Source of the DNA: Thermodesulfobacteriota bacterium
GTDB taxonomy: Bacteria; Desulfobacterota; GWC2-55-46; JADFVP01
Length of the DNA stretch: 64,000 nt
Assembly: GCA_046754225.1 (NCBI GenBank)
Contig: JBHHVI010000001.1
Coordinates: 5,776 to 69,775 of the forward strand
Reading direction: 5' to 3'
Below, piece by piece: positions 13,574 through 62,043 of this stretch (positions within the stretch are counted from its first letter, which is position 1; each line of letters begins with the position of its first letter). The notes beneath the pieces were generated by a model. The model ran no database searches, was not told where the DNA came from, and saw nothing but the letters and a program-made list of their open reading frames with translations. The translations under genes and the position numbers were made by a program.

Positions 13574-14536
13574 ATGAAAATACAGATAAAGATAAAACGC
13601 TTCAACCCCTCGGAAGGCGAATCCAGTGAGCCTTACATACAGGCCTATAACGTAAAAGCGGCCGCCGGGATGAGTATCCTTGAAGCGCTCCTGAAGATCG
13701 CCGAAGAGGAAGACCCCACCCTCGGCTTCAGAAGGTCCTGCAGGTCCGCCATATGCGGGTCCTGCGCCGTAAAGATAAACGGCTTCTCGAAACTCGCCTG
13801 CAAGACGCAGATAATCCCGGAATACAAAAAGCAGGGAGCGCTCCTCATAGAGCCCCTCGCAAACTACCCGGTCCTTAAAGACCTTATAGTGGGCTTTGAC
13901 AGGTTCTGGAATAACATGGGTAAGGTTACGCCCTACCTGACGCCGGCGGCCGGGGCCCTGCACATGGAAAAAATAACCAAAGAGGACGCCGACAGGATAG
14001 ACAGTTCTCAGAAATGCATCATGTGCGGCTCGTGCAACTCCGAGTGTAACGCCCTTGAAATCGACTCCCATTATATAGGCCCCTCGGCGCTGGCCAAGGC
14101 GTGGAGGTTCGTAGGCGACGTGCGGGAGGGGGCGCCGGAAAAGAGGCTCAGGCGCATGAGCGCCGAGCACGGCATGTGGGACTGCGTGAGATGCGTGCAC
14201 TGCACCCAGTACTGCCCCAAACAGGTGGCGCCTTTAAAACAGATAGAGAGACTCCGCTCGGGGGCCATAAAGAAGGGGCTCCATGACAACCCCGGGGCCA
14301 AGCACGTCCTCTCCATGTCGAACTCCATAAAGCGCGTGGGACGCCTCGACGAGGCGGCTATGACCTTCAAGACCCTCGGGTTTCTAAGGTCTCTGGGCAT
14401 GATACCCTTCGGGATAAAGATGGAGATCCACGGCAAGATGCCCAAGCCCCTCATATTTTCCCAGATAGGCGGTATCGATGAAGTCAAAAAGATATATGAA
14501 GAGATTGAAGGGGCAGAGGCGGAGGAGAAAAAATAG
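13574..14536 (+). CDS. frdB: Fumarate reductase/succinate dehydrogenase iron-sulfur subunit
   Basis: A 2Fe-2S motif (CRSAICGSCAVKING) is followed by CIMCGSCNSEC and CVRCVHCTQYCP. Confidence 0.85.
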   Translation: MKIQIKIKRFNPSEGESSEPYIQAYNVKAAAGMSILEALLKIAEEEDPTLGFRRSCRSAICGSCAVKINGFSKLACKTQIIPEYKKQGALLIEPLANYPVLKDLIVGFDRFWNNMGKVTPYLTPAAGALHMEKITKEDADRIDSSQKCIMCGSCNSECNALEIDSHYIGPSALAKAWRFVGDVREGAPEKRLRRMSAEHGMWDCVRCVHCTQYCPKQVAPLKQIERLRSGAIKKGLHDNPGAKHVLSMSNSIKRVGRLDEAAMTFKTLGFLRSLGMIPFGIKMEIHGKMPKPLIFSQIGGIDEVKKIYEEIEGAEAEEKK

Positions 14537-14542
14537 GTTACA

Positions 14543-15415
14543 ATGGATAAACTGAAGTACGCATATTATCCCGGCTGCGCCTCCAGTGAGATGACCAAAG
14601 AGGCCAACGATACGACACGGCTGGTGGCCTCGGCCCTCGGCATTGAACTTCGTGATATGCCCAGGGCGAACTGCTGCGGCGCCGGGCTCATGAAGGACTA
14701 CGACTATGACCTCAACATAGCGCTTAACGCCCGCATCTTCGCCGAGGCCGAGGTGATGGGCCTTGATATCATGACCATATGCTCAACGTGTCTCATGGTG
14801 ATGAGTACGGCCAACAGGGACTTGAAGCGCGACGCCGGGCTCCTCGAAAGGACAAACCTGATACTTGAAAGGGCCGGGCTCCATTACAGCGGAAAGGTTG
14901 AGGTAACGCAGCTTCTCTGGGTCCTCGCGAAGGATTACGGTCTTGAAAACCTCAAGCGGCAGGTGACCAAGCCGCTCAACTGGCTCAAGGTAGCGCCCTT
15001 TTACGGTTGCCACAGCCTGAGGCCATCGGACGCCCTCGGCTTTGACGACCCGGAAAAACCTGAGTCTCTCGAGTCGGTCATAAAGGCCGTGGGGGCCGAT
15101 GTGGTGGATTACAAGGGAAAGACCAAATGCTGCGGTTTTCAGATTAACCTTGTAAGTGAGGATACGGCGGTGGGCATGACGGGAACGAGGCTGCTTGACG
15201 CCAAGGCAGGCGGCGCAAGGTGCGTGGTGACCCCATGCCCTTTCTGCCACATAAACCTCGATAACTACCAGGGGTTGGCGGAGAAAAAGGTAATGCATAT
15301 GATAGGCCTGCCCGTATTTCACCTGCCCCAGCTTGTGGGCCTGGCGATGGGGCTCACGGCCGAGGAGATGGGGCTCTCGCGCCACCTCGTAAGCATGGAA
15401 GGGATTTACAGGTAA
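14543..15415 (+). CDS. HdrB-like CCG-domain subunit (SdhE/FrdE of type-E succinate:quinone oxidoreductases)
   Basis: 290 aa with two cysteine-rich CCG-type domains (YYPGCAS...CCGAG and YGCHS...CCGF...CPFCHINLD), directly after frdAB. Confidence 0.75.
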   Translation: MDKLKYAYYPGCASSEMTKEANDTTRLVASALGIELRDMPRANCCGAGLMKDYDYDLNIALNARIFAEAEVMGLDIMTICSTCLMVMSTANRDLKRDAGLLERTNLILERAGLHYSGKVEVTQLLWVLAKDYGLENLKRQVTKPLNWLKVAPFYGCHSLRPSDALGFDDPEKPESLESVIKAVGADVVDYKGKTKCCGFQINLVSEDTAVGMTGTRLLDAKAGGARCVVTPCPFCHINLDNYQGLAEKKVMHMIGLPVFHLPQLVGLAMGLTAEEMGLSRHLVSMEGIYR

Positions 15416-15506
15416 CCCCCCCCTTCTTCCCCCCGGAGACACCAGAGAAGCGAAAGACTTTTCAGACTTCCCGCGCCTTTTTCAGCCCCCTTGCTCCGGG
15501 CAAAAA

Positions 15507-16172
15507 CTAATACTTCGAGATATTCAACTCCTCCATCTTACCCGTTACCATGTAGACCACCCTTTCGGCTATGTTGGTAACCCTGTCGGCTATTCTCTCG
15601 AGGTTGTGCGCGGCCCATATAAGGTGCGTGGCGCCCTCGATTATCTTCGGGTTTTCTATCATCATCAGGAGAAGCTCCCTGTAAATCTGGTCGTAGAGAG
15701 CGTCAACCTTATCATCGTCACCGCAGACCTTGCGCGCCGACTTTACGTCTTTCGCCATAAAGGCCTCCATTGTCCTGCTGAGCATGTCTCCCGCTATCTC
15801 GGCCATCCTGGGCAGGTCTATAAGGGGCTTGACGAGGGGGTCGTCCCCTATGAGTATGCTTATCTTCGCTATCCCTTCGGCATGGTCGCCTATCCTCTCG
15901 AGGTCGGTTATTATGTTTATCACGGCTCCGAGCATCCTCAAGTCCTTTGCCATGGGCTGCTGCGTGGCGATAAGCATCATGCACTCTTTCTCTATATTAA
16001 AGCGCAACTTGTTTATACGGGCGTCGTCCTTGACGACCTTCTTGGAAGCCGCCAGATCGCGCGTCTTGAGCGCCTCCATCGCTTTATTCAGCGCCACGCC
16101 GACCATCTCGCCCATCTTAAGGAGTTCTTCCCGAAGGTCCTTAAGCGCCTTATGGTACGCCTTTCTCGTCAT
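15507..16172 (-). CDS. phoU: Phosphate signalling complex protein PhoU
   Basis: 221 aa with PhoU repeats (…ITDLERIGDHAEGIAK… and …LERIADRVTNIAERV…). Confidence 0.9.
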   Translation of the reverse strand: MTRKAYHKALKDLREELLKMGEMVGVALNKAMEALKTRDLAASKKVVKDDARINKLRFNIEKECMMLIATQQPMAKDLRMLGAVINIITDLERIGDHAEGIAKISILIGDDPLVKPLIDLPRMAEIAGDMLSRTMEAFMAKDVKSARKVCGDDDKVDALYDQIYRELLLMMIENPKIIEGATHLIWAAHNLERIADRVTNIAERVVYMVTGKMEELNISKY

Positions 16173-16210
16173 CTCTCCTCCATTGTCTTAAAAAGATTTA
16201 CCTTTATCTC

Positions 16211-16975
16211 TTAGCCGAACCTTCCCGTTATATAACTTTCAGTAAGTTTGTTACCGGGGGTGGTGAATATCTTCTGCGTCTTGTCGAATTCCACAAGTTC
16301 CCCGAGCATGAAAAAACCGGTATACTCCGAGACCCTCGCCGCCTGCTGCATGTTGTGCGTGACGATTACAATGGTGTAGTTCTCCTTCAATTCCGCCATA
16401 AGGTCCTCGATCCTCGATGTGGAGACCGGGTCAAGGGCCGAGCACGGCTCGTCAAAGAGTATTGTGTCCGGCCTCACTGCCACGGCCCGCGCTATGCAGA
16501 GCCTCTGCTGCTGGCCCCCGGAGAGCGCCTGTGATGACTTCATGAGCCTGTCCTTTGTCTCATCCCAGAGGTAGGTGTCCTTGAGGGCCTTCTCCACCCT
16601 GTCCCGGAGCTCGCTTTTGTTCTTAAGGCCCCTTAAGCGGAGTCCGAACGCGATATTTTCGAAGATGGACAGGGGGAAAGGCGTGGGCTTCTGAAAGACC
16701 ATGCCGATTATGGTCCTGAGCTTCATAAGGTCGGTGCCGGGCCCGAGGATGTCCTTGCCGTCAAGGAGTATCTCGCCTTCATAACGGTTGCCGTGGTAGA
16801 GGTCGTGCATCCTGTTAAGACACCTTAAAAAGGTGGTCTTTCCGCACCCCGACGGCCCTATAAGGGCCGTCACCTCGTTCTTGTGCACGGGCATGGAGAT
16901 GCCCTTCAGGGCGTGGACGCCCCCGGCGTAGTAGAAGCTGAGGTCTTTTATCTCTATCTTTATGTCCTTTTTCAT
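16211..16975 (-). CDS. pstB: Phosphate ABC transporter ATP-binding protein
   Basis: Walker [10 protein letters not shown], signature LSGGQQQRL. The start was placed at MKKDIK, giving an ATGA overlap with the pstA stop. Confidence 0.9.
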
Positions 16976-17817
16976 CCCGCCCTGTACTTCCATTTTATGA
17001 TAAATCTCCCTAATATGGTCAGCGCTAAGATGAAGAGCGCTATAATAAGCGAGGCGGCCCAGGCCTGGGCGTGCCAGGAGTCGTAAGGGCCCATGGCGTA
17101 CTGGAATATGGTCACCGTAAGGGACGCCATGGGCTCGTTCATGTTGGTGGAAAAGAAGGAGCTGTTAAAAGACGTAAAGAGAAGCGGCGCCGTCTCGCCC
17201 ACTATCCTTGATATGGACAGGAGTATCCCCGTAAGGATGCCGGCCGATGCGCCCCTGTAGACGACCTTGAATATGACCTTGTAGTACGGGGCGCCGAGGG
17301 CGAAGGCCGCCTCCCTCAATGACCAGGGCACGAGGCGCAGCATGTCCTCGGTGGTTCTGATGACGACGGGCACCATTATAACGGCGAGGGCAACAGCGCC
17401 GGCCCAGCCGCTGAAGTGCCCCATGGGCTTTACGAGTATGGCGTATATGAAGGTCCCTATGACGATGGAAGGGACGCTCACCATGGTATCGGAAAGCACG
17501 CTTACCACCCTGGCGTAAAAGCTGCCACGGGCGTATTCGGAGATAAAAGTGCCTCCCAGGAGCCCCAGGGGCACGCCTATGATGGTGGCGAAGAATACTA
17601 TGATAAGCTGGCCCACGAGGGCGTTCCTGAGCCCCCCGCCCTCAAGCCCGGCCGGAGCGGGGTCGTTAAGGAAGAGGGCCGGCCCCAGGGCGCCTATGCC
17701 CTGGACCACCACATCGAAGAGTATGAAAAAGAGCCAGAAGAGCCCCAGGAGCGTGGCGAGGGTGCAGAGCGTCAGCACTGTGTAGTTTACTATCTTCCTC
17801 CTCGTCACAACAGTCAT
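16972..17817 (-). CDS. pstA: Phosphate ABC transporter permease PstA
   Basis: A polytopic permease carrying the EAA-like loop ([11 protein letters not shown]). Confidence 0.85.
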
Positions 17818-17818
17818 A

Positions 17819-18754
17819 TCAGGACCTCCTCTCAGCCCTCAGCACAAGCATCTTCGCCGCGGCCAGTACGATAAAACTGAAGACAAAGAGGATGAGTGCG
17901 AGGTAAAAGAGCGAGGAAAGGTATATGTCCGTATCGGCCTCCGTAAACTCATTGGCGAGAGTTACGGTTATGGTCGAGGCAACGTCAATGAGCGACCATG
18001 TTATCTTGTGGTCCCCGCCAAGGACAAAGGCCACGGCCATGGTCTCTCCAATGGCGCGGCCGAGGGAAAGGATTACGCCTCCAAGCACCCCTATCTTCGA
18101 GTGCGGTATGACGACGTTCCTTATGACCTCCCATTTGGTGGCCCCGAGGCCGTAGGCCGACTCCTTTACGACAGGGGGCGTGAGGTTAAAGGCGTCCCTT
18201 GAGATGCTCGCCGTAAAGGGGATAATCATGATGCTCAAGACCACGGAGGCCGTGAGGATGTCTATCCCCATAGGCGTGCCCTCAAAGAGAACGCCCACAA
18301 ACGGCAGCGTCCCGAAGGTGCTTTGAAGCATGGGCTCTATATAGTCGGCCATTATGGGGGCGAGGGTAAAGAGCCCCCACATACCGTAGACTATACTCGG
18401 TATGGCCGCGAGAAGCTCTATGGCCACGCCGGCGGGACCTTTGAGAAACTTGGGAGAGAGCTCCGTGATGAAGATCGCTACCCCTATGGCCACGGGAACG
18501 GCGAGAACGAGGGCGAGTACGGTGGTGACAATAGTGCCAAAAAGGGCCGTAGCCCCTCCGAAGACCTCTCTCACCGGGTCCCAGTCCGTGGATATGATAA
18601 AGCGCCATACGCCGAACCGTTCAATGGCGAGGGAAGACTCTGAAAGGAGGACATAAAAGATGCCGATAATCAAGAAAACCACGGATAAAGAGGCCGCACC
18701 CGTCAACAGATAAGCGGTCAGGTCCCCCGGGTCCCTTTTAAGCTTTAAGGCCAA
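17819..18754 (-). CDS. pstC: Phosphate ABC transporter permease PstC
   Basis: A polytopic permease (ESAYGLGATKWE loop), second permease of the pst operon. Confidence 0.85.
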   Translation of the reverse strand: MALKLKRDPGDLTAYLLTGAASLSVVFLIIGIFYVLLSESSLAIERFGVWRFIISTDWDPVREVFGGATALFGTIVTTVLALVLAVPVAIGVAIFITELSPKFLKGPAGVAIELLAAIPSIVYGMWGLFTLAPIMADYIEPMLQSTFGTLPFVGVLFEGTPMGIDILTASVVLSIMIIPFTASISRDAFNLTPPVVKESAYGLGATKWEVIRNVVIPHSKIGVLGGVILSLGRAIGETMAVAFVLGGDHKITWSLIDVASTITVTLANEFTEADTDIYLSSLFYLALILFVFSFIVLAAAKMLVLRAERRS

Positions 18755-35449: not shown

Positions 35450-35475
35450 CTCTTCCTCCTTAAAACTATTGTCAG

Positions 35476-35504
35476 ATAATATAATATTTCAACATTCGTG
35501 TCAA
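35476..35504 (-). promoter_or_regulatory. Consensus sigma70-type promoter for dnaK (TTGACA-N17-TATTAT on the minus strand)
   Basis: Seen directly: -35 at 35499-35504, -10 at 35476-35481, and the dnaK ATG at 35449. Confidence 0.45.
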
Positions 35505-35658
35505 AATCAACGAAAGCCATGACATTACCAATATAATTTAGGTACGGAGAAGGGCTGTGTCAAGGCGGAGCGGATAAATTTCCGGCACGAGGCGGGATAA
35601 AGACCAAAAAGAGGTTTTAGCTCGAAAAAATACTCAATTTCATCAAGTGAGAAAAGGC

Positions 35659-36393
35659 TTACACGTCGCCGAGCACGTACTGCACGATGGATACGGCGGC
35701 GATGGCGGCGGTCTCGGCCCTCAGGACCCTCGGGCCCAGCCCCACGGGTATGAAGCCCCCGGACTCGGCGAGGATTATCTCTTCAGATGAAAAGCCCCCT
35801 TCAGGGCCTACGAGCAAAATAATCTTATCGATTTTGGGAGGGGCTTTTTTCAGGGCCTCTTCAAGGGGGCCCCCGCCTTCTTCAAAAAGCACTATTCTGA
35901 AACCCTGAGAGGCGCCGCCCATGGCATCCTTTAAACTCTTAGAGGAGCTTATTTCCGGCACAAAGGCCCTGCCGCACTGTTTGGCGGCCTCCACAGCCAC
36001 CCTGTCCCACCTCTTGAGCCTGTTCTTCAACCCCGGCTCACCCGGGGCCGGCACGCTCCTTCCAGCCGGATAATAAACAATCTTTTTTACGCCGAGTTCC
36101 GTGGCCTTCTGTATGACCAGTTCAGGCTTATCACCTTTTATAAAGCCCTGTACGAGTGTAATCTCAAGGGGGCTCTCCGCCCTGCCCTCGAGCATCCCGT
36201 CTATCGTCACCGACGCCGACGCCCTGCCTACGGATTCAATGGTCGCGAGAAGTTCGAGGCCGAGACCGTTAAAGAGGGCTATCTTTTCCCCCTTCTTGAG
36301 TCTCAGGACCTTTTTCAGGTGTACGAACTCGTCGCCCTTAATCAAGGCCTCGAGGGAATTCTCCCGTATGTCAGGCGCGAAAAACCTTCTCAT
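35659..36393 (-). CDS. rsmE: 16S rRNA (uracil1498-N3)-methyltransferase RsmE
   Basis: MRRFFAPDI..., a PUA-like N-domain and a SPOUT C-domain (LLVGPEGGFS). The start was placed at an internal ATG of the longer six-frame ORF. Confidence 0.8.
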   Translation of the reverse strand: MRRFFAPDIRENSLEALIKGDEFVHLKKVLRLKKGEKIALFNGLGLELLATIESVGRASASVTIDGMLEGRAESPLEITLVQGFIKGDKPELVIQKATELGVKKIVYYPAGRSVPAPGEPGLKNRLKRWDRVAVEAAKQCGRAFVPEISSSKSLKDAMGGASQGFRIVLFEEGGGPLEEALKKAPPKIDKIILLVGPEGGFSSEEIILAESGGFIPVGLGPRVLRAETAAIAAVSIVQYVLGDV

Positions 36394-36411
36394 GGCGTTT
36401 TTTGATTGAAC

Positions 36412-36692
36412 AATTAAAAAACCTTGGCAGACCCCCGCGGATAGAATCGGGCAATTAAAACCTTTCGCAGACCCTGGCGGATACAATCGGACAATTAAAA
36501 CCTTTCGCAGACCCCCGCGGATGGAATCGGGCAATTAAAACTTTTCGCAGGCCCTTGCGGATGGAATCGGGCAATTAAAACTTTTCGCAGGCCCTGGCGG
36601 ATGGAATCGGGCAATTAAAACTTTTCGCAGGCCCTTGCGGATGGAATCGGGCAATTAAAACTTTTCGCCGCCCCTTGCGAATACAAGAGCGG
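36412..36692. repeat. Tandem direct repeat of seven 40-bp units (consensus AATTAAAACTTTTCGCAGGCCCTTGCGGATGGAATCGGGC), with terminal units degenerate
   Basis: Seen directly: a 40-bp period from ~36412 to ~36692. It fills the rsmE-prmA intergenic space, and the last unit encodes the prmA C-terminal tail and stop codon. Confidence 0.8.
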
Positions 36693-37593
36693 CCCACTGG
36701 CCGGAAGAAAAAGTTTTTAAAGGTTTAAGCCCGTGGCGTGAGTACGCCTCGGTAACCGCCGGGGCCTGTCCCTTGAGTATCCCCGAGAGGACAAGACGGG
36801 CACCATTACAAAGGGCGAGCCTGCCGGAAAGAGCGCCGGCGAGCCTTACCAGAACCCCGGAGAAGATATTGGCCGTAACAACGTCGTATCTTTTCCTTAT
36901 CCTCTCCACGGCCGCCCCGCTTATTGAGGCCTTAATATTATTGACGCGAACGTTTTCTCTCGCTATCTTCACCGCCCCGGGGTCAATGTCAATGCCTGTA
37001 GCCGCTCCGGCCCCGAGCTTCATGGCCGCTATGGCGAGTATCCCCGTGCCTGTGCCCACGTCGAGCATCTTCTGGCCCGCTCCCCCCGCCCCTTTAGCGC
37101 CCCCTCTTTTCAGGATCATAAGGAGGGCCTTGAGGCAGAGTTTAGTCGTGGCGTGGTGGCCGGTGCCAAAGGCCATGGACGGGTCTATCTCAATAAAAAT
37201 ATCGCCGGGCTTCTTTTCCACCTCTATCCACGGCGGCCTTACTACGACCCTTCGCCCGCCGTAAAAAACCCTTACGGCCCTTATCCCGTCCCTCCATTTT
37301 ACGGACCAGTCACTGTCCCTGTATTCCGAGAGGTTAAACTCCCAGCGGATTTCTTCAAGACCCTTCACCAGGGCGGGCAGCTTCCGCGCGGCATCTTCCT
37401 TCTTCAGGTAGGCGACACAGGCGGTGAGGGGGGTTTCAAGGCATGGCTTTGCCTCAGCGGCGCCCGGTAAAACCTGCACGAGCGAATCATCTTCGAGCAC
37501 ACCGGGGCTTCCGGCGGCGATAAAGAAATCTATAGCCCTCTCTTTCGCCATGGCTTTGCCCCAGGCCCTGATCTCTATCCAGTCTCCTGTCAT
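36655..37593 (-). CDS. prmA: Ribosomal protein L11 methyltransferase
   Basis: 312 aa; SAM-binding motif LDVGTGTGILAIAA. Confidence 0.85.
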   Translation of the reverse strand: MTGDWIEIRAWGKAMAKERAIDFFIAAGSPGVLEDDSLVQVLPGAAEAKPCLETPLTACVAYLKKEDAARKLPALVKGLEEIRWEFNLSEYRDSDWSVKWRDGIRAVRVFYGGRRVVVRPPWIEVEKKPGDIFIEIDPSMAFGTGHHATTKLCLKALLMILKRGGAKGAGGAGQKMLDVGTGTGILAIAAMKLGAGAATGIDIDPGAVKIARENVRVNNIKASISGAAVERIRKRYDVVTANIFSGVLVRLAGALSGRLALCNGARLVLSGILKGQAPAVTEAYSRHGLKPLKTFSSGQWAALVFARGGEKF

Positions 37594-37639
37594 ATTTTTA
37601 ATGAGCAGAAAAATAACGCGCCTTCATCATACACTCAGA

Positions 37640-40997: not shown

Positions 40998-41072
40998 ATC
41001 TTTTTATTAAAAACCGCCTGCAACCCGTTTTTTAAGTCCCGGCAGACCCGTTTCTAAAATAACCTGAAAAAC

Positions 41073-42212
41073 TCAGGGGTTCTTGAACTGCTTGCTGAGC
41101 GTTATGCCCTGAAACTGATAAGAAGACCCTATCTTCGGCCCGTAGACCTTCTCCGGGACCTCTCTCATCTTTTCATAGGTAAGCTTGCAGAATGTCTGGC
41201 CGTGGGCGATCATGAAAGGCGCGTCATGGGCCCTCACCTCAAGGACGGCCTTCGTGCCCTTTACCTCGCCGCCTGGCCCGTAGCCGAAGCCCGGGTCGAA
41301 GAAACCGGCGTAGTGGGTGCGGAGTTCCCCGGAGCCCGCCTCGTAGGCGGCCATCTCGGCGGCGTATTCAGGGGGTATGCGTATCTTCTCCTTGGACGAG
41401 AGTATGTAGAAGTCCTCCGGTTCGAGTATGAGTGTGCCCTTCTCGTTCCGGTAGATGGGTTCCCAGAAGTCCTTGATATTATAATGGTTTCTCTTCGTAA
41501 GGTCAACGACGTGGCTGTTCTTCCTGGACTTATACCCTATGACGCCGCCGGGGCCGTCCCCCTCGAGGTCGACTCCCATGAAGAGCCCCTTTGAAATTTT
41601 TACGTTCTCGGCAGGCACCCCTTCTTCGCCTTCATAGAGTATCCCCGGACTTAAGTGGAGCCCTTTCAACTCCTCATCGCTAAGGACGCAGTCCCCGCCC
41701 ATAAGACGGAGTTGGACAAGGCTCAGCCCCTCTCTTACCTTGATGGTAAATGACCTCGGCAGGACCTCAAGAAAAAGCCTTCCGCCATAACCATCAGCGA
41801 TGTCGTCAAAACGGGGGTTCCTGTCCGTCAGTACCCTCGCGAATATATCAAGTCGACCTGTTGTTGACTTCGGGTTCGCCCTCGCCGAGACGCCTTCGGG
41901 GAGTCTCAATTCCTCGATTAGGGGTATAAGGTATACGTGCCCCTTTTCAAGTATCCCTCCGCCTGATATATCGGTCTCATACATTACAAGGTCCGAGCCG
42001 TAAAGGTCGGGGGCGTGCAATTGCTCCATAACCTCATGGCTCTCGGGCAGAAAACTGGAGACGAGCCTGTAGGCCTTTGAGCCGAGCCGGAGGTCCATGC
42101 TCGCCGGCTGGATCTGAACCTCGCCTATTGGGGCGCCCTTTGAGGATATAACCCCTTTTTCAACGCAATCCTTAAGGGCCTGCCAGCTGTAGACTCCGCT
42201 CTTTTTCTTCAA
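41073..42212 (-). CDS. Long-form 2'-deoxycytidine 5'-triphosphate deaminase-like protein (DCD family)
   Basis: 379 aa; the QPASMDLRLG motif resembles the dCTP deaminase/dUTPase fold. Confidence 0.55.
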   Translation of the reverse strand: MKKKSGVYSWQALKDCVEKGVISSKGAPIGEVQIQPASMDLRLGSKAYRLVSSFLPESHEVMEQLHAPDLYGSDLVMYETDISGGGILEKGHVYLIPLIEELRLPEGVSARANPKSTTGRLDIFARVLTDRNPRFDDIADGYGGRLFLEVLPRSFTIKVREGLSLVQLRLMGGDCVLSDEELKGLHLSPGILYEGEEGVPAENVKISKGLFMGVDLEGDGPGGVIGYKSRKNSHVVDLTKRNHYNIKDFWEPIYRNEKGTLILEPEDFYILSSKEKIRIPPEYAAEMAAYEAGSGELRTHYAGFFDPGFGYGPGGEVKGTKAVLEVRAHDAPFMIAHGQTFCKLTYEKMREVPEKVYGPKIGSSYQFQGITLSKQFKNP

Positions 42213-42464
42213 CCGCTCTCCTTAAATCGATTATCCCTTGTATTCCGAAATCCCTTTATACCAAACGAAAAAAGGGCGGGCTGAGCAAAAAAAACCGCCG
42301 CTAAGATGTTATAGCAGTAAAACCCGAAGGTCAAGATTTTATATGTCTTGATATAAAAACGGTAATTTTCCGGAAGGATGTAAACTGCCGGGGATTAAGG
42401 ATTTAAATAGCCGGGGATATTGAGGGGTTAAGAGGTTGGTCTTAAAAAAAGCGGGGCGGCTTAA

Positions 42465-42833
42465 TCAGCAGAATTTGAGTCCGGCCTTGGAAATGCCGTA
42501 TATCTTCTTGGCCCATACTATACGGGCGCTCTTTTCCATTTTGGATTTCCTGATATAGATCCTCACCGTATCATCCTCGTCAAAGGGGAGATAGCCCTTC
42601 ATCCTGATACCGAGGCCGTCCCGGGATATATCCATCAGCCTGACCGGCACCCTGACATCGCCCTTCATGAGATCGCAGTGGTCATGCGTAATATCCCTCT
42701 TGGCCCCCCTCTTATCCTCATATGCGGCTATAGAGGCGAATCCGCAATAAGGACAGGGCATCTTCGACTCATTTGCGGCGCTGTAATAAGGATTACTGCA
42801 TCTCGCGCATTCCTGTCTTTTCATGTCAGCCAT
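42465..42833 (-). CDS. PilZ-domain protein with an N-terminal zinc ribbon
   Basis: Contains CARCSNPYY...CPYCGF, then RGAKRDITH...DISRDGLGI (RxxxR...D/NxSxxG). Confidence 0.6.
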   Translation of the reverse strand: MADMKRQECARCSNPYYSAANESKMPCPYCGFASIAAYEDKRGAKRDITHDHCDLMKGDVRVPVRLMDISRDGLGIRMKGYLPFDEDDTVRIYIRKSKMEKSARIVWAKKIYGISKAGLKFC

Positions 42834-43086
42834 AAATTCTCAAGAAGCATTCAAAAAACATGATGAATGTTATATTAAACGACGCGGCAGTTTTGATTAT
42901 AATAAGATTGGTTTGATTTTGTCAAATAATTTTTAAAAAAAATGTTCTATGTAAATATTAAGTTTATTTTATCAACCATATATTAATCAATTCCTCCGCT
43001 CCGCTCCACAACAAAAAAACCTCTCAAAAGCCTGTAAAAACCCGCCTCCCCTTGACATTCCCCCCCCTCTCTGATAAACGGTAAAT

Positions 43087-43395
43087 GTGAAAAAGAGCCG
43101 TGGAAAACAACCGGGGCTGAGGTTCAAGGCCGTTTATATCTTTGGCGCCGTAATCTTAGCCATAACCCTCTTTACCGTATTCGGCGACAAGGGGCTTATC
43201 GACGTCTACAGGATCAAAAAAGACAGGAACAATATTTTAAGATACAACAGCGAGCTTGAAAAAGAGAACGCCGGCCTCGAAAGAAGGATAGCCCTTTTAA
43301 AGAAAGACAGGCGATACATAGAAGATATCGCCAAAAAAGAACTGGGCATGATAAGAAAAGACGAGGTCGTCTACAGGTTCGAAGCATTGGATTAG
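43087..43395 (+). CDS. ftsB: Septum formation initiator (FtsB/DivIC family)
   Basis: 102 aa with a GTG start, a single transmembrane segment, and a coiled coil (LEKENAGLERRIALLKKD). Confidence 0.6.
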   Translation: MKKSRGKQPGLRFKAVYIFGAVILAITLFTVFGDKGLIDVYRIKKDRNNILRYNSELEKENAGLERRIALLKKDRRYIEDIAKKELGMIRKDEVVYRFEALD

Positions 43396-43620
43396 CCCCT
43401 CCCGGAAACGCCCCGCCTCATTTTTGTGACCCCCCCTTTTTAAATCACCCTTTTTAAATCCAGGAAAAGGATATTTTTGTTGAACCGCTGAAAGTAGCGG
43501 CAGGGCCGTCTACATTCAGCCCCCTTTCATGGAAACGCCTTTTGGGGCCCGGCGTAGCAGAGCCCCTCTCCACCTCTCATAAGGGGCCGGCCGGGTTAAA
43601 AGACAAAAAAACAGACATAA

Positions 43621-43649
43621 TTGACTAACCCCATAAAAAAGGTTATAAG
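43621..43649 (+). promoter_or_regulatory. Candidate sigma70-type promoter (TTGACT-N17-TATAAG) ending 9 nt before the CN-hydrolase ATG, implying a leaderless or near-leaderless mRNA
   Basis: Seen directly. Confidence 0.35.
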
Positions 43650-43658
43650 TTTTTTCCT

Positions 43659-44507
43659 ATGGAAAGAATCATAAAGACCGCCGGCATCCAGATAGCCCCA
43701 ACAGGGGACGGGGAAAAAACCCTTAAAAAGACCGGGGAGCTTATAGCGCTCGCCGCCGACGAGGGGGCGGCTATCGTGGCGCTTCCCGAACTCTTCAACA
43801 CCCCCTGGTTCCCGGCGGCCATCGACAAAACGAATTTCTCCCTCGCAGAGGAGGCCGACGGAAGGACCATCTCCTCACTAAGGGAGACCGCCGCCAGTAA
43901 AAAGGTCTATATAGTGGCGACGATTTTCGAAAAGGACGGGGCGGACCACTTCAACACCGCCTTTGTAATAGGCAACGACGGCTCCATCAAAGGTAAATAC
44001 AGGAAAATACATGTGCCGGGGATACCGCTCTGGGAGGAGAAGAGCTACTTCAAGCCCGGCGACCTCGGTTTTCCCGTTTTCAAGACCCCGCTGGCCACGA
44101 TCGGGGTCCAGATATGCTGGGACGTCTTCTTCCCCGAGGGTTTCAGGGTCCTCGCCCTGAAGGGCGCCGAGATAATATTCACGCCGACGGCGTCGGCCTT
44201 TTACCATTCACACAAAAAATGGGAGCGCGCCATTTCCGCCGCCGCCCACTCTAACGGCCTTTTTATCTTCAGGGTCAACAGGGTGGGAGAGGAAGAGCGC
44301 CAGGAATTTTACGGCAGGAGTTTCTGCACCAAGCCCGACGGCGAGCTCCTTATGCCGCCGAGCGGGGCCTCCGAGGGGATAGTCCTCGCCGAGATAGATT
44401 TAAGCGAAATCGATTCCACGAGACAGGAATGGGTCTTTTTAAAGGACAGAAGGCCCGGGGAATACGGCAAGATTACGGAGGAGACGGGTGAAGGCAAGGG
44501 TTCGTGA
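43659..44507 (+). CDS. Carbon-nitrogen hydrolase family protein (nitrilase superfamily)
   Basis: Glu-Lys-Cys triad context (ALPELF, YRKIH, QICWD), 282 aa. Confidence 0.8.
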   Translation: MERIIKTAGIQIAPTGDGEKTLKKTGELIALAADEGAAIVALPELFNTPWFPAAIDKTNFSLAEEADGRTISSLRETAASKKVYIVATIFEKDGADHFNTAFVIGNDGSIKGKYRKIHVPGIPLWEEKSYFKPGDLGFPVFKTPLATIGVQICWDVFFPEGFRVLALKGAEIIFTPTASAFYHSHKKWERAISAAAHSNGLFIFRVNRVGEEERQEFYGRSFCTKPDGELLMPPSGASEGIVLAEIDLSEIDSTRQEWVFLKDRRPGEYGKITEETGEGKGS

Positions 44508-60882: not shown

Positions 60883-62043
60883 TCAAGCGAGCTCCAACCC
60901 CTCTATCCTCTTCAAGACGTAATCTCTTATCTCACGCGGCTTCAAGAGTTCCCTTGTCACCGCTCCCTTTTCTATAAGGGGCGTAAAGAGACTCTCCAGC
61001 GCACCTCCGCATGAGCATTTATCAGGCCTCTTACCGAGGGGAATGACCAGCCTTTCAGCGCATTCGCGGCACCTGAGCACGTCCTTGGCGCCAGACCACT
61101 TGCCCCGCTTGGCCAGTGGTTTACCTTCAACCTCCATTATGTCCATCGCAAAATCAATAACCGGGGCGTTGCTTATGGAAGTGCCGACGCCGAAGGCGTC
61201 CACCACGGGCTTCAGCTCCGTCACCTCTTTTTCGTCGAGGCCGCCGCTGGCGAAAAGCTTTACGTGATTAAACCCCCTCAAGTCCAGTTCCCACCTCACC
61301 TCCTCGAAGATGCGGTAGAAATCCCCACGCCGCGTCGAGGGCGTATCGAGCCTTACGGCGTGGAGCTTATCGCCAAAAGCCTCGGCCACTCGGAGCGCCT
61401 CGAACTTTTCGTCGTTAAATGTGTCTATGAGCGCCACCCTCTTTATCTTCTTGTCAATAACCTCGTCAAAGGCCCTTACCGCCTCGACGGTATCGCCTAA
61501 AACGAGTATGAGGGCATGGGGCATCGTCCCCATGGGGTCTTCCTCGATAAGCTCGGCGCTCTCTACAACCGCCACGCCGTCGCAGCCGCCGATGAAGGCG
61601 GACCTCTCGACCATGGGGGCTATGGCCGGATGCATGCGCCTTGCCCCGAAACTCGCCACCGTCCTATCACCGGCGGCTATCCTTATGCGCGCGGCCTTTG
61701 TCGCCACGCCCGAGGCCTGACAGATAAGCCCGAGCATGGATGTCTCAAATACGGAGAATTCCCTGTACACCCCCTCTATCTCCATCACCGGCTCCCAGGG
61801 GGAAAAGACCTCTCCTTCCCTGAGTGACCTTATATTCACGTCGCGCCCATCCATCAACCGGGCGACCTCTTCTATTCCGGCCAGCACCCCCCATCCGTAT
61901 TGGTCCGGCAGGGTCTTGGCGAAAAATTCCGCCCTCACCCTCGTATCTACACCCTTCGCCTCAAGTATCTCAAGGGTCCTTCTGAAATACACGTCAGTAA
62001 CCCTACCCTCCCTGATATCCTCCGGCTTCGCAATATGGAACAT
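60883..62043 (-). CDS. Nicotinate phosphoribosyltransferase (archaeal/Thermus-type) with a C-terminal zinc ribbon
   Basis: 386 aa; the conserved N-terminus is DVYF...; CRECAERL...CSCGG at the C-terminus. Confidence 0.7.
   Translation of the reverse strand: MFHIAKPEDIREGRVTDVYFRRTLEILEAKGVDTRVRAEFFAKTLPDQYGWGVLAGIEEVARLMDGRDVNIRSLREGEVFSPWEPVMEIEGVYREFSVFETSMLGLICQASGVATKAARIRIAAGDRTVASFGARRMHPAIAPMVERSAFIGGCDGVAVVESAELIEEDPMGTMPHALILVLGDTVEAVRAFDEVIDKKIKRVALIDTFNDEKFEALRVAEAFGDKLHAVRLDTPSTRRGDFYRIFEEVRWELDLRGFNHVKLFASGGLDEKEVTELKPVVDAFGVGTSISNAPVIDFAMDIMEVEGKPLAKRGKWSGAKDVLRCRECAERLVIPLGKRPDKCSCGGALESLFTPLIEKGAVTRELLKPREIRDYVLKRIEGLELA

Follow-up and report, generated by a model that had tools for sequence, protein, structure and literature searches.

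Slippage and unequal recombination are the accepted generators of bacterial minisatellites or VNTRs, which are used in MLVA typing. What defines repeats of the REP/BIME, ERIC and MITE types is a stable GC-rich stem-loop or terminal inverted repeats, together with many dispersed copies. The iterons of plasmids and replication origins are direct repeats of 17–22 bp that lie beside a rep gene or an origin and are bound by the initiator.

Some of these elements are found inside operons. REP/BIME, ERIC and MITE-type repeats are short, lie between operon genes and are transcribed with them (PMC3184786). The MIRUs of mycobacteria are tandem units of 40–100 bp that occupy intergenic regions of polycistronic operons and are co-transcribed (Supply et al. 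1997, via PMC3184786). They contain ORFs that overlap the neighbouring genes at their ends, and are dispersed over about 40–50 loci per genome, with direct repeats and empty sites as the signs of insertion. The tandem repeats in promoters of M. tuberculosis can change copy number at high frequency, and this is hidden by short-read assembly (PMC12817950).

In this work we describe a tandem array between prmA and rsmE in a 64-kb stretch of DNA (the window, to which all coordinates refer) from an uncultured Thermodesulfobacteriota MAG. The array is probably a locus-specific minisatellite (VNTR), produced out of the prmA 3′ end through slippage or unequal recombination and transcribed as a weakly structured spacer that would uncouple prmA from rsmE.

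Genomic context

The gene order at the locus is ftsK-lolA-yajQ-prmA-array-rsmE-dnaK, and the minus strand encodes both prmA and rsmE. The sequences next to the array are bounded as follows:

36655–37593, minus strand: prmA, ribosomal protein L11 methyltransferase, 312 aa (PF06325; NCBI MFQ5441128.1)
36394–36405, minus strand: unique remainder of the leader, TCAAAAAACGCC, A-rich, without a Shine-Dalgarno motif, directly 5′ of the rsmE ATG
35659–36393, minus strand: rsmE, 16S rRNA m3U1498 methyltransferase, 244 aa, start MRRFF (PF20260 and PF04452; NCBI MFQ5441127.1)

The NCBI names of the two proteins are 50S ribosomal protein L11 methyltransferase (MFQ5441128.1) and 16S rRNA (uracil1498-N3)-methyltransferase (MFQ5441127.1), and the Pfam domains found on identical proteins in public contigs are PrmA for the former and PUA_4 with Methyltrans_RNA (RsmE) for the latter. 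MFQ5441126.1, of identical sequence to the next product, is named DnaK. All three proteins belong to a MAG contig of 95,529 bp. Since the accessions MFQ5441126.1–MFQ5441128.1 are consecutive, no protein-coding gene is annotated between prmA and rsmE, which are separated here by 261 nt.

Structure of the array

Seven head-to-tail units of 40 bp occupy positions 36406–36686 of the minus strand, between prmA and rsmE; the count of seven is the figure of the MAG contig, for an array inside which the short-read contigs of four runs break. The units were phased on the gene-sense (minus) strand, where they start at TTG or TTC and run from 36686 to 36406:

36406–36686, minus strand: whole array, sense-strand consensus TTCCATCCGCnAGGGnCTGCGAAAAGTTTTAATTGCCCGA (Tandem Repeats Finder, repeat finder, alignment A1)
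36647–36686, minus strand: V1, the founder unit, with the prmA 3′ end and a 7-nt spacer
36607–36646, minus strand: V2
36567–36606, minus strand: V3
36527–36566, minus strand: V4
36487–36526, minus strand: V5
36447–36486, minus strand: V6
36406–36446, minus strand: V7, 41 nt

All seven units could be aligned (alignment A1), with a mean column identity of 89% and 26 invariant columns, among which are the TTTTAATTG block and CGC, GGG and GC positions. Tandem Repeats Finder placed the array at 36427–36679, with period 40, 6.3 copies, 92% matches, 0% indels and a score of 387, and returned no comparable second tandem array in the 64-kb window. The exact 40-mer given in the preliminary description of this DNA is present three times in the window at ≤1 mismatch, while the expectation from shuffles is 0. 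With period 40, seven units and 89–92% identity, the array has the make-up of a minisatellite, that is, at least two head-to-tail copies of a 10–100 bp unit with high identity.

The divergence of the units is graded along the array. V2 and V4 are the same in sequence and V3 is one base off, while V5–V7 are more diverged and have in common the variants GGGTCTGC and AAAGG/AAGG; V1 and V2 are identical at 35 of 40 positions. The sole indel among the seven units is one additional base in V7 (alignment A1). Every unit alternates an A/T tract with a GC-rich half and carries, on the antisense strand, GGAUGGAA and two GGA motifs. The unit also holds the imperfect palindrome CGCAGG/CTTGCG, and CCGCGG is present in two units. 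A higher-order period of 120 bp, to which the CCAGGG of both V3 and V6 would correspond, was rejected, since adjacent units are more identical to each other than units three apart (alignment A1, counted by eye).

In one phase, the units resemble CRISPR direct repeats of about 36–40 bp, starting with GTTTTAAT and with a GAAA-like end, but they abut with zero spacing and have no spacers between them, and the array does not belong to that class. The preliminary description of this DNA had already excluded a CRISPR array for the lack of spacers, and had presented a seven-copy 40-bp tandem repeat between prmA and rsmE, with central units more than 90% identical, degraded ends, the palindrome and CCGCGG in some copies. 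These points agree with the Tandem Repeats Finder result, alignment A1 (V2–V4 differ at 0–1 positions, with greater divergence in the end units), and the Pfam and NCBI gene names. The period, there called perfect, is kept throughout except for the extra base of V7.

Origin of the repeat unit

Unit V1 reads TT GTA TTC GCA AGG GGC GGC GAA AAG TTT TAA TTGCCCGA and encodes (L)VFARGGEKF and the stop, followed by 7 nt (TTGCCCG A); the last ~10 codons of prmA and its TAA are thus contained in it. An alignment of the window PrmA with 59 homologues revealed that the conserved core of the protein ends in ...(E/Q)WAALVF and gives way to a variable tail of 2–10 aa, occasionally longer, which in the window is ARGGEKF. 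The bases TTGTATTCG of V1 are the L-V-F codons, and L-V-F ends the conserved core in all of the 60 aligned sequences. In the DNA of the relatives these codons are recognisable as CTTGTCTTC, CTCGTATTC and CTTGTCTTT. Because conserved L-V-F codons cannot originate from the repeat, the repeat is derived from the end of prmA, and not the reverse.

The first nine bases of the units are TTGTATTCG in V1, TTGTATCCG in V6, TTCTATCCG in V7 and TTCCATCCG in V2–V5, which corresponds to a match with V1 at eight of nine positions for V6, seven for V7 and six for V2–V5. The array grew out of the prmA 3′ end, with V1 as the unit from which the others depart step by step. It is a locus-specific sequence made in situ and not an inserted mobile sequence, as befits a minisatellite. 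The idea that the repeat supplies the C-terminus of PrmA and its TAA therefore holds in so far as V1 contains (L)VFARGGEKF and the stop codon, but the direction of descent has to be reversed.

Past V7, the sequence continues with TTGTTCAAT, then CAAAAAACGCC, then the ATG. Compared with the TTGCCCGAT of the unit, TTGTTCAAT matches at six of nine positions, and the three mismatches are all transitions, which is consistent with the sequence after V7 being the original flank of the ancestral junction. A unit formed by duplication of the prmA tail plus the rsmE head was also considered and rejected: the similarity to the rsmE 5′ end is limited to AAGGTTTTT (9 nt, score 18), below the chance matches found elsewhere in the window. 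For this reason, and because it is simpler and fits, a unit composed of the prmA tail, the stop and the 7-nt spacer is preferred.

These comparisons suggest the following course of events. In the ancestor, as reconstructed, prmA would have ended in its TAA about 20 nt before the ATG of rsmE. A segment of 40 bp, made up of the last ~10 prmA codons, the TAA and, from the short ancestral spacer, 7 nt, would then have undergone tandem duplication through slipped-strand mispairing or unequal recombination, and later amplification to seven copies. V1 would have remained as the working end of prmA and the six downstream copies would be non-coding relics, with the central units still being homogenised and those on the rsmE side decaying.

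Distribution of the unit and the junction in related lineages

No further copy of the unit was detected in the 64-kb window by mismatch search, blastn-short or sliding local alignment, and the best off-target alignment there (score 29, 61891–61925, antisense within a 386-aa ORF) is a chance match. Searches with two degenerate unit patterns gave no matches in 185,579 species genomes, in 241 million JGI metagenome records or in viral contigs, and blastn of the array gave none in plasmids or phages. The translation of the array, read through all three unit frames on both strands, matched no protein among 5.8 billion clusters. A dispersed repeat family or mobile element was rejected, given that none of these sources, from the window and the genomes to the metagenomes, viral contigs, plasmids, phages and protein clusters, holds another copy. 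The unit is known at a single locus, its dispersal having been searched over 64 kb of the source genome and the public collections; identical arrays scattered as a generic family, which the preliminary description had named as grounds for refutation, did not turn up in either.

The nearest PrmA homologues are 45–50% identical and come from uncultured Deltaproteobacteria/Thermodesulfobacteriota MAGs. A PrmA-based scan of the GTDB species genomes revealed no close relative, and near-identical strains were found only as Logan contigs, which break in the array. The synteny ftsK-lolA-yajQ-prmA is kept in six related lineages, as far as their contigs reach, and rsmE comes directly after prmA in five of the six. 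The stop codon of prmA and the start codon of rsmE overlap as ATGA in lineages L004, L005/L006 and L009/L010; the two genes abut in L012 and are 2 nt apart in L007. The rsmE start of the relatives is ATGAGAAGATTTTTC, which encodes MRRFF. None of the five lineages having rsmE after prmA presents a tandem repeat at this junction. Unrelated repeats occur nearby in two lineages: L011, where rsmE is absent, has a 19-bp unit in three copies and a 126-bp unit in three copies directly after prmA, and L010 has a 95-bp unit in two copies after rsmE. This suggests that the group readily forms intergenic tandem arrays.

Since the junction is compact in the relatives, the 261-nt gap in the window is the derived state. 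The junction disrupted by the array is normally of a predicted translational-coupling type. The earlier view of a conserved junction whose coupling would be affected by the array finds support here, the genes of the relatives overlapping or lying 0–2 nt apart and the array removing the ATGA overlap that most of them have.

Comparison with described repeats

The array shares with VNTRs the head-to-tail units of tens of bp, the highly identical centre with degenerate end units, the intergenic location with one end in a gene terminus, the restriction to one locus, and the independence from secondary structure. It differs in two respects. VNTRs are defined by copy-number polymorphism, whereas here there is one assembled array in which short-read contigs break, and the host is an uncultured Thermodesulfobacteriota MAG without a close sequenced relative.

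The mycobacterial MIRU appears to be the closest named analogue, in a comparison made by description and between different host phyla. As in MIRUs, tandem units within the 40–100 bp range lie between genes of a predicted operon. V1 contains the stop codon of prmA, and the potential frames of the units are chained via TAA-TTG into the frame of rsmE, which recalls the MIRU ORFs but follows from the way in which the array arose. On the other hand, the unit is present at one known locus and is derived from the 3′ end of the adjacent gene, not from an insertion, and dispersal, the feature that defines MIRUs, was not found in the 64 kb or in the collections searched. We do not file the array as a MIRU member.

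The promoter repeats of M. tuberculosis resemble the array in being tandem repeats upstream of a gene whose copy number is concealed by short-read assembly, and differ from it in that no promoter is detectable in the array units. A set of iterons was rejected, since the period is 40 with no 20-bp sub-period seen by eye, the context is one of chromosomal housekeeping genes, and there is no plasmid or phage match.

Reading frames and translation of rsmE

The period of 40 is 3n+1, that is, no multiple of 3, and each unit has a single stop, TAA, directly followed by TTG. Two open frames result from the reading of the array:

36535–36654, minus strand: potential mini-ORF of 39 codons, from the TTG directly after the prmA TAA through V2–V4, ending with TAA then TTG (frame reading)
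36394–36534, minus strand: open frame from the TTG at 36534 via V5–V7 and the leader, in frame with the rsmE ATG (frame reading)

The mini-ORF reads V2–V4 in the three frames of the unit. The second frame is listed as part of a 291-aa ORF (35659–36534), whose exact product is absent from a collection of 15 billion proteins, and the corresponding N-terminal extension of RsmE has no counterpart in the relatives, whose RsmE also starts with MRRFF. The genes prmA and rsmE are in one frame and only two TAA codons stand between them. A 7-codon ORF in another frame (36413–36390) is closed by a TGA overlapping the start codon ATG of rsmE, and GAAAGG is found 6 nt 5′ of the TTG at the V5/V6 junctions.

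A TAA-TTG in each unit and the frame shared by prmA and rsmE would look like a coupling device, and were counted against the minisatellite. The array could in this case be a MIRU-like translational coupler, in which a relay of mini-ORFs, each passing from TAA to TTG, carries ribosomes to an rsmE start that has no Shine-Dalgarno motif. As 40 is no multiple of 3, the gain or loss of a unit would switch the coupling of rsmE on or off by phase variation. The immediate succession of stop and start in every unit would serve such a relay, as would the two TAA-TTG junctions that separate the two genes, the TGA overlapping the rsmE ATG and the GAAAGG of the V5/V6 junctions. There are also precedents: MIRUs are intercistronic units of 40–100 bp with ORF ends overlapping the flanking genes (PMC3184786), and the copy number of M. 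tuberculosis tandem repeats acts as a phase-variable expression switch (PMC12817950).

Relay and switch together are nevertheless distinctly unlikely. The stop-start motif and the three-unit period of the ORFs follow automatically once the region around the prmA stop is copied at intervals of 40 nt, and the match between the prmA and rsmE frames is an event of one chance in three. The TTG starts behind GAAAAG are weak. In the window, Shine-Dalgarno motifs are absent for prmA and ftsK as well as for rsmE, and strong for dnaK, yajQ and lolA, so that nothing special has to be invoked for rsmE. A second locus with the unit did not turn up in the window or in any collection searched, and no relative carries the array. 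It is very unlikely, on the sequence features listed, that a MIRU-like device arose independently in Thermodesulfobacteriota, with a TAA-TTG relay running across 261 nt to rsmE and a 3n+1 unit that would make rsmE phase-variable.

As a minisatellite, the array would leave rsmE to be translated by its own initiation at the A-rich leader, without a Shine-Dalgarno motif. Any influence of the array is limited to rsmE, since the downstream dnaK has its own promoter-like TTGACA-17-TAAATT site and a strong Shine-Dalgarno motif.

Transcription, RNA structure and protein binding

Scans of the array sense strand for sigma-70, sigma-32 and sigma-54 sites stayed at background, and a promoter array was rejected for this reason. 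The best sigma-32 match is 10/15, a value reached by 82% of random 340-nt segments, and the TTTAAT hexamer of each unit is accompanied by a −35 element of only 3/6. Terminator-like calls were limited to two weak 5-bp stems in or beside V1, the number expected by chance. As the array has no promoter or convincing terminator, it is most likely co-transcribed, and would be part of the ftsK-lolA-yajQ-prmA-rsmE mRNA as a weakly structured spacer, probably with no dedicated function.

The folding of a 331-nt region gave −87.7 kcal/mol for the sense strand, against a shuffle mean of −100.3 (z = +2.3), and −80.2 kcal/mol for the antisense strand, against −97.3 (z = +3.2), so both strands of the array are less stably folded than shuffles. 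The units V2–V7, folded singly, reached −3.7 to −8.2 kcal/mol, in structures that differ between units, and the 4-bp stem CGCA/UGCG is not intact in V3 or V6. No conserved hairpin was found in the whole-array folds of both strands or in the folds per unit. No Rfam 15 family reached its gathering score in the array; the permissive mode returned only two matches of E=2.9, at the edges of the array or outside it, and none to E=1 inside. With its lack of a stable or conserved hairpin, of inverted terminal repeats and of dispersed copies, the array differs from REP/BIME and MITE elements.

A structured RNA was rejected on the basis of folds weaker than shuffles, inconsistent unit structures and the lack of an Rfam family. 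In a broader sense, the transcript of the array, sense or antisense, might form a structured RNA array, titrate a protein as a sponge, or provide a processing platform through which the prmA and rsmE mRNA would have separate fates. Such a role could make use of the two GGA motifs per unit on the antisense strand, or of the single-stranded A/U-rich tracts between GC-rich segments on the sense strand. It is extremely improbable, considering that both strands fold worse than the shuffled controls, that the folds vary between units and the small hairpin is lost in two of them, that no Rfam family comes to E=1 inside the array, and that neither strand has a promoter or terminator for an independent transcript. 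Of the three options offered in the preliminary description, the structured RNA array is not supported by the folds or by the Rfam result, which is noise only, and the replication-slippage minisatellite is the one that the evidence favours.

The remaining option, an iterated protein-binding platform, would consist of seven phased sites, each with A4-G-T4-AATT, bound by a putative regulator or nucleoid protein, and might control the read-through from prmA to rsmE or the local DNA architecture. The regular 40-bp spacing, the 26 invariant columns with their TTTTAATTG block and CGC/GGG/GC positions, and the A/T tract alternating with a GC-rich half in each unit are what such a platform could present. 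We consider it highly improbable. Invariance is expected from recent duplication alone, V2–V4 being almost identical, and the units have no operator-type dyad symmetry beyond the imperfect palindrome of 4–5 bp. There is no controllable promoter in or beside the array, the relatives regulate nothing at this junction, as their genes overlap there, and the motif occurs nowhere else in the 64 kb.

Assembly support

The array was also sought in Logan contigs of near-identical strains. An identical PrmA was found in runs SRR29324597 and SRR29324588, and a V60I variant in SRR29324610. The contigs on the prmA side, from these three runs, all end 16 nt into V2. This end is the last 31-mer unique to the V1/V2 junction, and the next 31-mer is common to four unit junctions. 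A k=31 graph must branch at that 31-mer if the array of the window is real, and the prmA-side contig ends therefore fit the prediction.

An identical RsmE was found in SRR29324594, and an A162V variant in SRR29324588. The contigs on the rsmE side begin inside V6 and pass through V7 into rsmE, with a sequence identical to that of the window. Their starts lie about 57 nt beyond the point predicted for k=31 by the window sequence alone, which may reflect V5/V6 heterogeneity in those populations. Both ends of the array are real, as they recur in four runs and in two strain variants.

A partial artefact, in which the near-identical central units V2–V4 were collapsed or expanded in the MAG contig, is unlikely. 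It could arise because V2 equals V4 and V3 differs at one base; every short-read Logan contig breaks within the array, and the late start of the rsmE-side contigs hints at heterogeneity or at another V5/V6 arrangement. Against it, the order of the units is non-random and marked by diagnostic variants, the C of V3 and the GG/T of V5 anchor the central block within ~100 nt, a distance that 150-nt reads could resolve, and the prmA-side contigs of three runs end exactly at the predicted k-mer branch. A miscount would moreover concern the number of units and not the nature of the element, and is compatible with a minisatellite. The assembly artefact foreseen in the preliminary description is in this way dismissed for both ends of the array, by the Logan contigs, while the number of central units is open to miscount.

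Conclusions

The significance of the locus is modest: it is another bacterial minisatellite, in an uncultured organism and with no sign of function, and its derivation from a gene end and the splitting of an overlapping pair are elegant without being a surprise. Contigs are interrupted at the locus in every short-read assembly of the population, and it is possibly a strain marker. The array would become interesting only if it were true that the number of units varies and controls the translation of rsmE. As it stands, it is a clean example of the birth of an array, in which the founder unit can still be recognised as the functional 3′ end of a conserved gene, and it indicates that an overlapping pair of genes, predicted to be translationally coupled, such as prmA and rsmE, can be parted by 261 nt with both genes kept.

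Similarity to the array unit and short-read coverage

The seven 40-bp units of the array (V1–V7) lie between prmA and rsmE, and the top off-target match to the unit in the window was TCCGTATTGGTCCGGCAGGGTCTTGGCGAAA (61891-61925, plus strand), which aligned with V6 (36447-36486) at 26/32 positions with gaps. This segment, with a score of 29 and an antisense location within a 386-aa ORF (60883..62043), was judged a chance match and rejected as a further copy.

Two Logan contigs carrying the rsmE side of the array, L003 (SRR29324594) and L014 (SRR29324588), have their first position at approximately 36480-36482 of the window, within V6, and their starts differ by two bases. These starts are located about 57 nt later than predicted by a k=31 graph of the window sequence; V5 (36487-36526) and V6 may be different or heterogeneous in these two samples.

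Tandem repeats in related lineages

Two loci of related lineages also present tandem repeats:

L011:3539-4018, tandem repeats after prmA (ENA ERZ4903125 k141_2913036; relative with PrmA identity of 45%)
L010:3053-3240, 95-bp tandem repeat, two copies, 92% identity (JGI 3300003542 FS900DNA_10031339)

In L011, rsmE is absent, and 19-bp (three copies) and 126-bp (3.0 copies) repeats are found immediately 3′ of prmA. The 126-bp copies are 95% identical and contain long palindromes (TGTGGCGTCAGGAGTTTCCTCCTGACG ... CGTCGGGAGGAAACTCCCGACGCCACA); a 176-aa ORF called across both repeats had zero Pfam matches. Compared by eye, CCATCCG is the sole stretch common to these repeats and the window 40-mer. 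The L010 repeat, located 3′ of rsmE and extending to the end of the contig, is a further unrelated intergenic tandem repeat beside the prmA/rsmE pair in a relative.

Genomic context and translation initiation

The features of the gene cluster considered here are:

35450-35658, minus strand, rsmE-dnaK spacer (209 nt)
37594-37623, minus strand, prmA leader without Shine-Dalgarno motif
36394-36423, minus strand, rsmE leader without Shine-Dalgarno motif
40998-41027, minus strand, ftsK leader without Shine-Dalgarno motif

Genes other than dnaK (COX1/COX3, aminotransferase, acyltransferase) come after rsmE in the examined relatives, and therefore the rsmE-dnaK adjacency is lineage-specific. The spacer contains a near-consensus sigma-70-like site, TTGACA-17-TAAATT (35563..35535, minus strand).

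Regarding base composition, GC skew changes from positive to negative at about 16-18 kb of the window (noted for 14000-18000), and cumulative GC skew declines to about 56 kb. The G+C minimum is at 42-44 kb (42000-44000), with 0.474 vs about 0.55.

Strong Shine-Dalgarno motifs precede dnaK (AAGGAGG, within the rsmE-dnaK spacer), yajQ and lolA, while the other three of the six cluster genes, those listed above, present A/T-rich leaders. The organism seems to use both initiation modes, with and without Shine-Dalgarno motifs.
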